Below, piece by piece: positions 17,230-47,879 of a DNA stretch of 64,000 nt. Positions within the stretch are counted from its first letter, which is position 1. Every line of letters starts with the position of its first letter. The notes below the pieces were generated by a model. It did no database searches, was not told the origin of the DNA, and saw only the letters and a program-made list of their open reading frames with translations. The position numbers and the translations under genes are program-made. The stretch comes from Candidatus Woesearchaeota archaeon (lineage in GTDB: Archaea > Nanobdellota > Nanobdellia > SCGC-AAA011-G17 > GW2011-AR20), in the NCBI GenBank assembly GCA_964419925.1, contig CAYQPR010000002.1, positions 2,002 to 66,001 of the forward strand. The letters are read 5' to 3'.

Positions 17230-17710
17230 TAATTTTAACTATTTTAGTAATATTATTTACAAAAAGTTTTGCATTTTTTAATGAATCTTCAGCATATTCC
17301 TTATTTGCCTGCGAAATTGTTTGATAAGTAAATAAACCTCTTTTAAATTTCAAATCTTTAAAAATTTCAAGCAAATGATCTGCCCTTATAATCATCTTTT
17401 GATAAATTTCAAGAAGTTTCACATCTATGATTCTGGTCTTAACAAAATTATTATCAAATTCATCATAAGTCTTTTTATGAACTTCAGGAAATGTTGTTTT
17501 AATATCTTTAGTTAATAAAATTGCCTTTGCTGAGTAAAATATCGCATAATAAGAATGAGAAATAACTGCACTGTAAAAACTAATCTCTAAAGGTATTTTC
17601 AAAAATTCTTTTTTCTTGTTATCATTACTTATATCTCTAAGCGTTTCAGCGATTATTAATTCATTTTCAGATCGATCAAGAAAATTTTTTGTTGTTAAAT
17701 CCATTCTCAA
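17204..17710 (-). CDS. HEPN-domain protein (toxin of a HEPN/MNT pair)
   Basis: All-helical 168-aa protein with the ISHSYYAIFYSAKAILL helix typical of HEPN. It overlaps the MNT gene and the gatE start. Confidence 0.55.
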   Translation of the reverse strand: MRMDLTTKNFLDRSENELIIAETLRDISNDNKKKEFLKIPLEISFYSAVISHSYYAIFYSAKAILLTKDIKTTFPEVHKKTYDEFDNNFVKTRIIDVKLLEIYQKMIIRADHLLEIFKDLKFKRGLFTYQTISQANKEYAEDSLKNAKLFVNNITKIVKIIDEDIENV

Positions 17711-18305
17711 TAACCTCTTGCATTAATTTAATATAAATCTGTCCTCCAGTTAATATAATGAAGTTTCTTACTATCCCTTTACCATAATTAGCTTCATTAT
17801 TTAAAAGCATTTCCTTAAACTCAGAATATTTAAAAACATATAAATGTATTTGTGGAATATTCATTTCTGCCTTAAAGGATAGTTCAGCATAAACTCTTTT
17901 AGGTTCAAACAAATCATTGATAAGCACAACAACATCAAGATCAGATGTTTTTGTAAATTTTCCGTTTGCATAACTACCAGTTATAATAAAAACATAATCC
18001 TTATAAGAAATATTGCTCATAAACTCTTGTAAATCTCGATAAGGTAAACTATCCTTATGCCAACCATAATACTCTAAAACAAAACCTGCAAAAATTCTTG
18101 ATTTTACTATAAAATTTAATGAGTAAACCGAGAGATTACCTACTTTTTCTAATAGTAATATTTTTTCTTTTAATAAATTCTTAATTACCTTATCAACATA
18201 GCTTTTTGATTTCTTTTTTGAAGAATTTTTTAATTCTGTAAAAGTATATTTTTTCCAAGGTTCTTTTGCAAATAAATATAATAATTCTGAATCTTTTTTT
18301 AGCAT
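17676..18305 (-). CDS. minimal nucleotidyltransferase (MNT) with N-terminal winged-helix domain (antitoxin partner of HEPN)
   Basis: GSYANGKFTKTSDLDVVVL is the GS...DxD polymerase-beta-type nucleotidyltransferase motif. It overlaps the HEPN gene. Confidence 0.7.
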   Translation of the reverse strand: MLKKDSELLYLFAKEPWKKYTFTELKNSSKKKSKSYVDKVIKNLLKEKILLLEKVGNLSVYSLNFIVKSRIFAGFVLEYYGWHKDSLPYRDLQEFMSNISYKDYVFIITGSYANGKFTKTSDLDVVVLINDLFEPKRVYAELSFKAEMNIPQIHLYVFKYSEFKEMLLNNEANYGKGIVRNFIILTGGQIYIKLMQEVIENGFNNKKFS

Positions 18306-18309
18306 AGTA

Positions 18310-18351
18310 ATTCCCTATTTTTAGGATTACTATTCCCTATTTTTAGGGTTA
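18310..18351. promoter_or_regulatory. Tandem operator-like repeat: two 20-nt units (attccctatttttagg[a/g]tta), each holding the palindrome CCCTA-TTTT-TAGG(G). Unit spacing is 22 bp, and they sit between a TATA-like box (atataaatat, 18351..18360) and the MNT start codon.
   Basis: Read directly in the sequence. Unit 2 is a perfect palindrome. Confidence 0.6.
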
Positions 18352-41388: not shown

Positions 41389-41435
41389 ATAATCCTTTTT
41401 TTATTTAAAATGACAAACAGTAATCTAGACACAGT

Positions 41436-45007: not shown

Positions 45008-45034
45008 AAACTTTTTTTCTTTTTTTAATTTAAA

Positions 45035-45346
45035 ATGACATATAAGCATATAATTGCGGCAGGGTATTCTAAAGAAGTTTTAGCTAAAAATAAAGAAGAA
45101 GAGAAAAAAATTTCTTTGGAATTAAAAAAATATATACAAAATAAACTCACATTAGAGAGTATAGATCCAATGAGATTCCCAAAACCTTTAGTTTCGGGAG
45201 CAATTGGAGACCGAGAATATGTATTTAGTATATTTTTCGGATATCAAATTTCAAAAGAAGAATGGACTAATAGAATAATAAGGGGGCTTAGACGAAAAGG
45301 TTTTAAAATAAAGATTTTTGGATTAGAAGACATACTTGAAAAATAA
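45035..45346 (+). CDS. hypothetical protein (first of three co-transcribed small ORFs)
   Basis: 103 aa. Its start overlaps a TTTAAAATG promoter-like context. No motif. Confidence 0.45.
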   Translation: MTYKHIIAAGYSKEVLAKNKEEEKKISLELKKYIQNKLTLESIDPMRFPKPLVSGAIGDREYVFSIFFGYQISKEEWTNRIIRGLRRKGFKIKIFGLEDILEK

Positions 45347-45665
45347 ATTTAAAATGGTTAACGATGAAGATGAATATAATGGGTCAACTGCACTTATATT
45401 AGATCATTATTTTGGTAATTATATCCATGTGGTCTGGTTTTATTATAATAACAATATCCAAAAATCTTACGAAGAAATTGGAAAAATTAAAGAAGAATTC
45501 TGTAAAGGATTAGAGTTGAAAATTAAAAAAGATTTAAAAGAGTATGCAGGAATAACCAATCAGACATTAAAAAATTTTTTAGAACTTGGAAAATCTTTAG
45601 ATTGGCTAGTGAAGGAGAATTTAGATTTGCTAAGAGATAAATATAGCAAATTAAGGCAAGAATAG
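45336..45665 (+). CDS. hypothetical protein (second of three)
   Basis: 109 aa. Overlaps the upstream ORF by 11 nt. Confidence 0.45.
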   Translation: MKNKFKMVNDEDEYNGSTALILDHYFGNYIHVVWFYYNNNIQKSYEEIGKIKEEFCKGLELKIKKDLKEYAGITNQTLKNFLELGKSLDWLVKENLDLLRDKYSKLRQE

Positions 45666-45675
45666 TACTAAAAAA

Positions 45676-45972
45676 ATGAATGATTTACCTTACATAATTT
45701 CTGTATCAAATAGAAAACCATTAAAGGAAACTTTGAGAGATGGAGAAAAATTAGAAGAAAGGTTAAGGAAAATTTTAGGCCATATCACTAAATATAATGG
45801 ACTTCATTCGGATTTAAATCTGGTTGATCATGCAAACGACGAAAAAATTTACTTTGCAAGAATAGATCAACATAATTACAATGAAACAATGGAAGATTTA
45901 AGGAATCTTGAAGCAGAGTTGATAATAAAAGAAAAAGAATTGAAAATTTATCGTTTAGAAGAAGTTTTTTAA
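45676..45972 (+). CDS. hypothetical protein (third of three)
   Basis: 98 aa. 10 nt downstream of the previous ORF. Confidence 0.45.
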   Translation: MNDLPYIISVSNRKPLKETLRDGEKLEERLRKILGHITKYNGLHSDLNLVDHANDEKIYFARIDQHNYNETMEDLRNLEAELIIKEKELKIYRLEEVF

Positions 45973-46007
45973 GTTAATTTTATATAGGTTAATTTATTCT
46001 TAAAACC

Positions 46008-46733
46008 GTGGAATTAAAAGAAAGGATAAAAAACCATTCATTGTATAAGAAGACATTAGAAAATAGATATTTAGCAATATTTCTACTATTAGTGATAATT
46101 CTAATGACTTACAGTTATTTTAAAGAAGGAATCGTTTATCAAATAAGCGATGTAAATCTAGAGGGGGTTAAAAATTTTATTAATTCATTTGGAAATTTTT
46201 CATGGATAATTTATGTTCTTACTTTAATTTTAATATCAATATTTCCAGTTCCATCAACAATAATTAATGTTGCAGGAAGTTTATCTTTTGGGCCATTAAA
46301 TGCAGTATTTTTAACATTAATTGGAGCAGTTTTAGGAAACAGTATTGATTACTTCATTGCAAGAAGATATGGGTATGAGCACATTAAACAAATTATTAAT
46401 GAGAAAAGAAGAGAAAAATTTGATGATTACTCTAAAAAATATGGTTATTTGGTGTTGTTCATTTTAAGATTAAATCCCTTAACATCAACAGATATTTTTA
46501 GCTATTTATCGGGGTTAATTGGAATGCCATTTAAAAAATTTTTACTCAGTACCATTTTTGGAATACTTCCGGGGATTATTTTTGTCTCTTATTTTGGAAG
46601 TAGATTTATAAATGATAATAAACTATTTAGATTAACATTTGTTATTATAACGATGTTTTATGCATTAATAATGGTTTATTTGATTTTAAGATTTTTAAAA
46701 AAGAAAGTTAAAGAAAGATTTGTTAAGAAATAA
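46008..46733 (+). CDS. DedA/TVP38 (SNARE-associated) family membrane protein. Possible GTG start.
   Basis: FPVPSTIINVAGSLSFGP...GAVLGNSIDYFIARRYG is the DedA signature. Confidence 0.65.
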   Translation: MELKERIKNHSLYKKTLENRYLAIFLLLVIILMTYSYFKEGIVYQISDVNLEGVKNFINSFGNFSWIIYVLTLILISIFPVPSTIINVAGSLSFGPLNAVFLTLIGAVLGNSIDYFIARRYGYEHIKQIINEKRREKFDDYSKKYGYLVLFILRLNPLTSTDIFSYLSGLIGMPFKKFLLSTIFGILPGIIFVSYFGSRFINDNKLFRLTFVIITMFYALIMVYLILRFLKKKVKERFVKK

Positions 46734-46734
46734 G

Positions 46735-46842
46735 AGCGTGGAGCAGGATTCGAACCTGCGGAGTAATCGCTATCTCCCCGTGGTCTGCAGGTTGGACTTT
46801 CTTTTGGAAATCGATCCCCTTAGGCCACTTGGGTATCCACGC
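46735..46842 (-). tRNA. Intron-containing tRNA. The anticodon loop reads either TTTCCAA (Gly-TCC) or ATTTCCA (Glu-TTC) depending on the stem register. Roughly 33 nt of extra sequence lies in the anticodon region.
   Basis: Acceptor GCGTGGA/TCCACGC. D-arm with AGTGGCC. T-arm GCAGG-TTCGAAT-CCTGC. 108 nt between the acceptor ends. Confidence 0.6.
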
Positions 46843-47661
46843 TTATAGGGAATTAATATCAAGAATACCTTTTAATAACTTTCGTCTTTGTTCTAAGGTG
46901 GTGTGTATTGGGCAGAATCCAAACCTCTTCCATACAAAATATTTGCTGTAATGTTTTGGGTTGCTAAACCCAATAATGGTAATCCATTTTTCCAAATTTT
47001 TCTTGCCAACAATCACAACACGATAATGTTTAAACACCCTATTATTTCGCTTACGTTTTCCTTTCTCTAAATAACTATGTATTCCCAACTTGTTTAATAA
47101 CACCTTTAACTGTTTTGTTAATTTCTCTGAGGCAAATTGACCTCCAATTAATGGGTAATGATGTTTCTTAAATTTGGTATCTTTTCTTATTTTAAACACC
47201 AAATAAAAATCCGTATCAGCAATTCCCCTAATTAATGCAGAAATAATTTTATTATCCTTAGTTTCAAAAAAATATTTGGGTATTTTATAAGAATTATCCA
47301 ATTTATTTCCAGGTGTATATTTCATATTTTTAACGAAAAAATTAATTATAGATTTAGAGGTTACACAGATTTTTATTCCATTTGTTCCAGAAATTTTACG
47401 AATATATGGCCTTACGTTAAAAAGATTGTAAAATAAATCTGATATTATAATGTTATGATAATCTAAATCTTCTTGAGCATGTCCGTATACAAATAACTCA
47501 TATTTTCTTCTGTTAGATGGTTTTTCTTTTAAATGGATGCACCCGTCTCCAATCATTAAACCAAATAATTCTGCCAAATCAGAAGTTAATTTATTAGGCA
47601 AATGAACATCTCTTTTTATATCTGAATTACTGAATGAAATTTTTGAGTTATCAAATATCAT
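46843..47661 (-). CDS. double-motif LAGLIDADG homing endonuclease, free-standing
   Basis: Motif 1 LAELFGLMIGDGCI and motif 2 ISALIRGIADTDFY. 272 aa. A TATA-like TTTATAA lies about 30 nt upstream. The ORF ends exactly where the tRNA gene begins. Confidence 0.75.
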   Translation of the reverse strand: MIFDNSKISFSNSDIKRDVHLPNKLTSDLAELFGLMIGDGCIHLKEKPSNRRKYELFVYGHAQEDLDYHNIIISDLFYNLFNVRPYIRKISGTNGIKICVTSKSIINFFVKNMKYTPGNKLDNSYKIPKYFFETKDNKIISALIRGIADTDFYLVFKIRKDTKFKKHHYPLIGGQFASEKLTKQLKVLLNKLGIHSYLEKGKRKRNNRVFKHYRVVIVGKKNLEKWITIIGFSNPKHYSKYFVWKRFGFCPIHTTLEQRRKLLKGILDINSL

Positions 47662-47760
47662 TTTTATATCAAAAATCTCTTCTTACTTATAAAGTTGACC
47701 CGCGAGGTTGTCACTTGGACAGTTGGGAAAAAATGTATATTTTAAAGAATATAAATAAAA

Positions 47761-47835
47761 CGGGCCTGATGGGATTTGAACCCACGATCTTCAGCTTAGA
47801 AGGCTGACATCCAATCCAGGCTAGACGACAGGCCC
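47761..47835 (-). tRNA. tRNA-Arg (anticodon TCT), no intron
   Basis: Acceptor GGGCCTG/CAGGCCC. Anticodon arm TCAGC-CTTCTAA-GCTGA. T-arm GTGGG-TTCAAAT-CCCAT. Discriminator G. Confidence 0.75.
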
Positions 47836-47879
47836 ATAATAAAAACCACCTCTATGAAGATATTTAAACCTTTTCAAAA

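Follow-up and report, generated by a model that had tools for sequence, protein, structure and literature searches.

Type II toxin-antitoxin (TA) pairs such as the archaeal RelE-RelB (PDB 1wmi) are encoded by small, adjacent, co-directional genes and evolve as strain-variable mosaics, and both properties recur in ORF2 and ORF3 of the locus analysed here. Small proteins with a beta-alpha-beta-beta-alpha-beta ferredoxin-like architecture, the fold predicted for ORF3, include ribosomal protein S6, stand-alone ACT domains and dimeric alpha/beta-barrel proteins. Two proteins of about 110 aa, MBI3190938.1 (HYZ41_04525, from a groundwater 'archaeon') and MBI4452135.1 (HY637_01780, from Ca. Woesearchaeota), belong to the family of ORF2 and align with it over the full length. 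Their genes stand alone in neighbourhoods that are unrelated.

The locus lies in a 64,000-nt stretch of archaeal DNA, referred to as the window, with a G+C content of about 28%. Low G+C, archaeal signals and the labels of the relatives of ORF2 point to a source that is probably of the DPANN group. Our analysis suggests that ORF1, ORF2 and ORF3 probably constitute a strain-variable accessory cassette of three real, mutually unrelated genes for small soluble proteins, and not a conserved three-gene machine.

Arrangement of the locus

As described by the first-pass annotation of this DNA, the three small ORFs are tightly spaced on the forward strand between a surface-type protein gene and a gene of the DedA family. 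The 685-aa translation of the upstream gene shows a hydrophobic N-terminal leader and a C-terminal membrane anchor and ends with ...LLRPR; its Ig-like Pfam matches (FixG_C, CARDB) are weak. The annotation had given lengths of 103, 109 and 98 aa with an 11-nt overlap and a 10-nt gap. The first and last of these lengths and the gap stand, while ORF2 is likely 103 aa long. Public gene calls place its start at ATG 45354 (P0002), and the homologue in the sister strain described below must use the equivalent ATG because an in-frame TAG lies five codons upstream. ORF1 and ORF2 are therefore separated by a gap of 7 nt and do not overlap; the spacers ORF2-ORF3 and ORF3-DedA measure 10 and 35 nt.

Directly after the stop codon of the DedA gene, and convergent with it, lies an intron-containing tRNA-Ile(tat) gene, which was missed by ARAGORN with default settings and by a scan of the whole window at the Rfam gathering threshold but reached 39.3 bits with Rfam when only 2 kb were searched. 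A LAGLIDADG homing-endonuclease-like ORF occupies the interval between this gene and tRNA-Arg(tct), its stop codon abutting the 5′ end of the intron-containing tRNA. The ORF is preceded at the usual distance by a TATA box of its own and could encode a domesticated or a mobile endonuclease.

Table 1. Position of sequence features in the window and in related loci, with nucleotide identity to the sister strain where aligned
Feature	Location	Strand	Identity to sister strain	Remarks
Surface-type protein gene, 685 aa	42950..45007	+		Upstream context, outside the trio; ORF call
T7-C-T7 tract	45012..45026	+		4 nt past surface-gene stop codon; resembles archaeal oligo-T terminator; kept in sister strain
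TATA-like octamer TTTAAAAT	45029..45036	+		Overlaps ORF1 start codon
ORF1	45035..45346	+		103 aa, ATG start
ORF2	45354..45665	+	70.2%	103 aa from ATG; alternative TTG 45336 gives 109 aa
ORF3	45676..45972	+		98 aa
ORF3, codons 1-18			92.6%	
ORF3, codons 19-55 (hypervariable)	45730..45840	+	59.5%	Helix 1, strand 2, low-confidence loop
ORF3, codons 56-98			95.5%	
ORF3-DedA spacer			74%	
TATA octamer TTTATATA	45979..45986	+		29 nt before DedA GTG start
DedA/VTT membrane protein gene	46008..46733	+	96.9% (first 162 nt)	Conserved right flank; PF09335, E 4.9e-27; GTG start
tRNA-Ile(tat)	46734-46842	-		35-nt intron; ARAGORN with introns allowed
LAGLIDADG homing-endonuclease-like ORF	46843-47661	-		272 aa; PF14528, E 2.4e-8
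tRNA-Arg(tct)	47760-47836			
Alpha/beta protein MGILFKTYNGKHQLHLYQETWRF...	L010 7321-7665	+		
Alpha/beta protein MGILFKTYNGKHQLHLYQETWRF...	L019 1367-1678	-		
Alpha/beta protein MGILFKTYNGKHQLHLYQETWRF...	L020 9854-10168	+		

The three ORFs look like genes

Chance alone would give the whole window about 1.5 stop-free runs of comparable length, so that the length of an ORF by itself is no proof of a gene. A codon log-odds model trained on 60 other genes of the window returned per-codon coding values of 0.41, 0.39 and 0.45 for ORF1, ORF2 and ORF3, compared with a mean of 0.357 ± 0.12 for the real genes of the window; the remaining five frames of each ORF all scored below -0.1. When compared with the sister strain, dN/dS amounts to 0.34 for ORF2 and to 0.44 and 0.19 for the variable and the conserved half of ORF3, respectively, and the indels of 6, 6 and 3 nt keep the frame in every case, one of 6 nt and that of 3 nt falling in the hypervariable segment of ORF3. 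Judged by codon usage, which fits the host genome, and by dN/dS values below 1 for ORF2 and ORF3, all three look like real small-protein genes, as had been supposed from the start.

All three products are soluble proteins, ORF1 with a basic predicted pI (9.6), ORF2 and ORF3 with acidic ones (5.4 and 5.6). Paralogy among them was not detected by pairwise BLASTP (E>0.5) or shuffle tests (z<1.9). A relationship between ORF1 and ORF3, suspected from a common beta-alpha-beta pattern and a similar C-terminal KIxxLE motif, was rejected (z -0.4 to 0.8).

An unnamed archaeal family around ORF2

No match to any of the three ORFs was found in Pfam, NCBIfam, PHROGs or PADLOC, and for these curated libraries the earlier statement that none of the proteins carries a family motif holds. 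It fails for ORF2, as does the claim of no recognisable homology: an exhaustive HMMER profile search built on ORF2 and its one groundwater relative retrieved representatives of 98 clusters at E<=1e-3, with 40 still included at E<=1e-10, and tblastn of ORF2 against member loci gave E values of 1e-9 to 1e-16. A word-indexed search of 5.8 billion proteins had returned for ORF2 only itself and one protein of a groundwater 'archaeon' (34% identity), for ORF3 itself and one protein (72% identity), and for ORF1 nothing but the self-match. Neither PDB sequence searches with single sequences and profiles nor IMG/VR scans with each of the three ORFs gave a significant match; the same is true for a JGI metagenome scan with ORF3 and a fold search of the viral structures in BFVD. 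Nothing relevant was found in the literature on an LDHYFGN-family motif, on PDC-S02 or on hypervariable small proteins of DPANN archaea.

Members of the family are mostly 100-120 aa long (about 110 aa) and share a signature consisting of TAxxLDHYFGN in helix 1, FIxGLE in helix 2, a GVT turn, and DW and LYxxY in the last helices. ORF2 carries all signature residues (T12, L16-D-H-Y-F-G-N22, F49, G52-L-E54, G66-x-T68 and D83-W84), with the usual P62, E74 and Y94 replaced by K, N and R. The polar positions 71 and 74, usually H and E in the family, are T and N in ORF2. Structure prediction, which the first-pass annotation had proposed for the trio, assigned ORF3 a ferredoxin-like fold and ORF2 an up-down four-helix bundle (AlphaFold2, pLDDT 88.8, pTM 0.78). 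From its conservation, the D-H...E...T motif of the family could form a ligand-binding or catalytic site.

All labelled members originate from Ca. Woesearchaeota or from an unclassified 'archaeon', the named ones having passed 0.1-um filters, and unlabelled loci bear archaeal-type genes (RpoL, TrmB). Among 60 family members no consistent match to Pfam, NCBIfam or PHROGs was found; isolated weak matches of single members, to YhaV (6e-4) and HigB (0.086), were not reproducible across the family. As judged by these relatives, ORF2 is the only member of the trio with evolutionary depth and belongs to an unnamed archaeal family. With about 100 clusters, a sharply defined signature and a four-helix-bundle model of good confidence, this family, which is absent from Pfam and NCBIfam, could be curated.

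The domain also occurs in other arrangements. In P0006 and P0062, two copies are duplicated head-to-tail and fused into one protein of about 260 aa; L018 1242-2051 (P0006/P0110) is such a fused tandem duplication. Unrelated N-terminal extensions of 58-234 aa are present in P0008, P0027, P0032, P0049 and P0077, and the fused N-terminal regions have no Pfam match. At two of three syntenic Woesearchaeota loci, L010 6585-6961 (-) and L019 1845-2296 (+), a frameshift divides the gene in the same place, between helices 1 and 2 and directly behind '...ERERGK', with the downstream part well conserved; L020 9352-9918 (-) served as the comparison locus. The split could reflect a shared pseudogene, a gene parted into two polypeptides or a programmed frameshift.

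ORF1 and ORF3

The predicted fold of ORF3, beta-alpha-beta-beta-alpha-beta (pLDDT 80), is ferredoxin-like, and the matches found in fold searches are generic only. As the ferredoxin-like fold is very common, the model says little on the function of ORF3. A homologue was found in the sister strain only. The variable block of the protein consists of helix 1, strand 2 and the low-confidence loop and maps to one face of the predicted fold. ORF1 is, as far as sequence comparison tells, a basic strain-specific orphan, present here and missing from the nearest relative.

All three proteins would act as binding or adaptor proteins rather than as enzymes, because no match to a catalytic family exists and the H and E found at residues 71 and 74 elsewhere in the ORF2 family are T and N here. 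Non-enzymatic binding proteins are thus our best guess from the sequences.

Gene content and divergence in a sister strain

The sister allele is represented by three short groundwater-metagenome contigs of 480-755 bp (L002, L003 and L022), two of which may share one groundwater project. Its gene order is ORF2′-ORF3′-DedA, with the same 10-nt spacer between ORF2′ and ORF3′. The T7CT7 tract and a TTTAAAA element are kept upstream of ORF2′, and in the 22 nt that lead from this element to ORF2′ lies an 8-codon stub opening with the ATGA of ORF1. With the stub in its place, ORF1 is therefore absent from the nearest relative. We interpret this as a presence/absence polymorphism seen in two alleles, which may be due to an insertion or to a deletion. 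At the 5′ end of L022 (positions 1-47), the sequence upstream of the conserved 'RPR-stop' and T-tract has about 64% G+C and is unlike the AT-rich anchor-coding sequence of the surface gene in the window; by its composition it could be a chimeric contig end, or the upstream gene could be wholly different in that strain.

Divergence between the strains is distributed unevenly along the locus (Table 1). The first 54 codons of DedA encode identical protein (100%) at a dS of 0.17, and dS is 0.15 in the rest of ORF3, compared with 0.83 in ORF2 and 0.65 in the first 52 aligned codons of ORF3. Synonymous divergence is thus 4-5 times higher in the variable blocks than in their flanks. The simplest reading of this pattern is a recombination mosaic into which old, diverged alleles were brought, and not merely relaxed constraint; recombination is deduced from two alleles only, from which a local acceleration of the rate is not rigorously separable. 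A target of a diversity-generating retroelement was considered and rejected, as no template repeat for the 45.0-46.0 kb region exists within the window, where its repeats do not go beyond AT-rich chance matches. The cassette would evolve by recombination, with diverged allelic blocks that span ORF2 and, in ORF3, the single face made up of helix 1 and the loop.

Genomic context of the ORF2 family

The first-pass annotation had regarded the trio as a functional module. The sister strain keeps ORF2-ORF3-DedA without ORF1, an absence of the kind which that annotation itself had named as speaking against a module. Further loci were collected by a back-translated motif search (three true ones in genomes and four in metagenomes, plus chance matches), and tblastn detected no homologue of ORF1 or ORF3 in the ten other ORF2-family loci. 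The expected co-occurrence of the trio elsewhere was thus seen at 0 of 10 loci, and no conserved neighbour of the family members emerged across the loci examined. Genes next to them range from RpoL and UPP synthase through TrmB, ParE, PolX and H+-PPase to DnaJ/DnaK and Fic, and the upstream partners of 166-167 aa at two loci are unrelated to each other. At all three Woesearchaeota loci, the ORF2-family gene has a divergently transcribed neighbour, located next to PolX, whose product is a highly conserved protein of alpha/beta type and about 92-104 aa (MGILFKTYNGKHQLHLYQETWRF...); it has no detectable similarity to ORF1 or ORF3.

By this distribution, ORF2 and ORF3 form a species-level pair at most. 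The locus would be typical of archaeal genomic 'dark matter': next to a gene for a surface protein, small genes confined to a lineage or a strain occupy a hot spot of recombination.

Putative promoter and transcription

Of the 63 genes of the window, 24 are preceded by a TATA-like octamer (TTTAWAWW or TTAWATAW) whose first base lies between -32 and -26 relative to the start codon, the distribution peaking sharply at -29. By motif position, an octamer at -29 is the geometry of leaderless mRNAs in this genome, a rule by which start-site and operon assignments are corrected; genes inside operons often have a GGAGG-like motif in its stead. An octamer at -6 is seen with ORF1 and ORF2 and with no other gene of the window, and at -30 ORF1 has GTAAAAAC, which is not a TATA octamer. 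A leaderless transcript beginning at the ORF1 ATG would call for a TATA box with its centre some 26-27 nt upstream. The proposal that TTTAAAATG is the TATA element of a leaderless ORF1 does not agree with these distances, the octamer being found only at -6 against a norm of -29. With the usual spacing between TATA box and transcript start, the TTTAAAATG element would start transcription inside ORF1, approximately 20-25 nt in. The motif TTTAAAATG occurs only six times in the 64-kb window. The octamer of the DedA gene coincides with the genome-wide peak, and DedA therefore has its own promoter signal.

Gene 41436 has a near-identical element, CTTTTTTTATTTAAAATGACA, 32 nt ahead of its ATG; the ATG embedded in that element is not a start codon. 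The sister-strain counterpart of TTTAAAAT lies 36 nt before ORF2′. Because of this recurrence and this position, TTTAAAAT is best read as the promoter of the cassette, and probably is one. Nearly the same terminator-promoter arrangement, CTTTTTTT(A)ATTTAAAATGACA, is found at 41393-41415, past the ribosomal L12 gene, and at 45019-45041, past the surface-protein gene. Elsewhere in the window, a tandem direct repeat of CCTAAAAATAGGGAAT(A/T) occurs twice at about 18306-18350 (-), immediately upstream of the start codon of gene 17676-18305, where a normal TATA box would be expected; the repeat may bind a regulator.

Runs of at least five T residues follow 28 of the 63 window genes and are absent after ORF1, ORF2 and ORF3. 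From motif positions, on which this model of transcription rests, the oligo-T tract would end the surface-gene transcript, and the TATA element overlapping the ORF1 start would then initiate about 20-25 nt downstream, at about 45055-45060 within ORF1. The resulting transcript would serve ORF2 and ORF3 and may read into DedA, since no terminator-like T-run separates ORF3 from DedA, which has its promoter too. Full-length ORF1 could then come from read-through transcripts only; its next in-frame ATG is codon 46. The coding log-odds of 0.51 for ORF1 codons 1-45 would conflict mildly with initiation inside ORF1. As the ORF1 polymorphism sits directly on the promoter, the locus may serve as a clean natural example bearing on how orphan genes arise or decay.

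Alternative readings of the locus

At least one of the ORFs, ORF1 in particular, might be non-functional, that is, a chance or decaying frame in AT-rich DNA past a promoter that contains an ATG. This can apply to ORF1 only, because purifying selection on ORF2 and ORF3 is clear. No homologue of ORF1 was found among 5.8 billion proteins, the ORF is missing in the sister strain, it lacks both a TATA box at the usual distance and a Shine-Dalgarno-like motif, and gene 41436 is preceded by the same promoter cassette with an embedded ATGACA, whose ATG clearly does not serve as the start codon there; a window of this size is moreover expected to contain some 1.5 equally long stop-free runs by chance. 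Nevertheless, its log-odds of 0.41 are typical of real genes over its entire length while all other frames fall below -0.1, and the ORF fills exactly the space between two same-strand genes, so that we consider a spurious ORF1 unlikely. Less probable still is that the cassette was left behind by an integrated virus or plasmid, or arose as a defence island, beside the tRNA/LAGLIDADG cluster. The strain-dependent content of the cassette and the presence, within 2 kb downstream, of two tRNA genes as well as the free-standing ORF of a LAGLIDADG endonuclease would fit such an origin, but neither an integrase nor bounding repeats were found in the cassette region, it does not differ from the surrounding genome in GC content or codon usage, and IMG/VR, PHROGs and BFVD gave no matches for it. 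PADLOC matches were confined to 12-22 bits and a minority of family members, the protein of the window not among them.

ORF2 and ORF3 could also be a putative cognate interacting pair of the toxin-antitoxin or toxin-immunity type with ORF1 as an optional third component, in which the interface would consist of ORF2 and the variable helix-1/loop face of ORF3, the two diversifying together. Their genes, encoding two small acidic proteins, are spaced by 10 nt in both strains, and the blocks of hypervariable sequence fall together in ORF2 and on one face of ORF3, with the remainder of ORF3 and DedA being near-identical. The ORF2 family is sporadic and its genes are at times frameshifted, tandemly duplicated or fused; genes of TA type (ParE, Fic, MazE-like, HEPN/MNT) are located near three members, such genes being common in archaeal genomes. 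The top PDB profile match of the family is the archaeal RelB 1wmi_B, which is not significant (E 0.042). Against a cognate pair, no TA or defence model matches ORF2 and ORF3, no recognised toxin or antitoxin domain was found in the trio with Pfam, NCBIfam and PADLOC, and neither of the two predicted folds is that of a recognised toxin or DNA-binding antitoxin. ORF2-family genes occur elsewhere without any conserved partner, with ORF3 present in the sister strain only and absent from the ten other ORF2-family loci, and dN/dS of both genes remains below 1. We therefore give the cognate-pair reading a small probability, and a marginally smaller one to its specific form of an unrecognised archaeal immunity- or TA-like pair whose interface would be maintained as polymorphic within the population through recombination. 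If true, the DPANN-associated 'LDHYFGN' family would be the conserved part of new small conflict or self-recognition systems in ultra-small archaea, and should the co-located hypervariable blocks prove to be where the proteins interact, the locus would offer a testable entry to strain-level conflict systems in these archaea. PADLOC further reported Cas11a for one of 60 family members (P0018, E 3.6e-5), Csm2 for two of 60 at about 0.01 and the candidate system PDC-S02 for a few members at 12-15 bits, with no such match for ORF2 of the window. A profile search of the family against PDB sequences found neither Cas11 nor Csm2, the small subunits of CRISPR effector complexes. No cas genes are present in the Pfam-annotated gene tables around the cassette or at the other ORF2-family loci so annotated, the remaining loci having been inspected for them as ORF translations only.

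Comparison with described proteins and systems

A strain-variable accessory cassette remains our preferred reading, and comparison with described systems indicates where its members depart from them. Unlike type II TA pairs, ORF2 and ORF3 show no significant sequence or fold match and no predicted RNase-type toxin fold, and the pair is not conserved beyond one species. ORF3 shares only 5-17% sequence identity with the small ferredoxin-like proteins named above and has no profile match to them. ORF2 lacks the HLxE in helix 3 and the C-terminal FDExxLF tail that most members of its family possess. It is nevertheless 34-37% identical to MBI3190938.1 and MBI4452135.1 (E 1e-9 to 1e-16), and the motifs TAxxLDHYFGN, GLE, GxT and DW are common to all three proteins.
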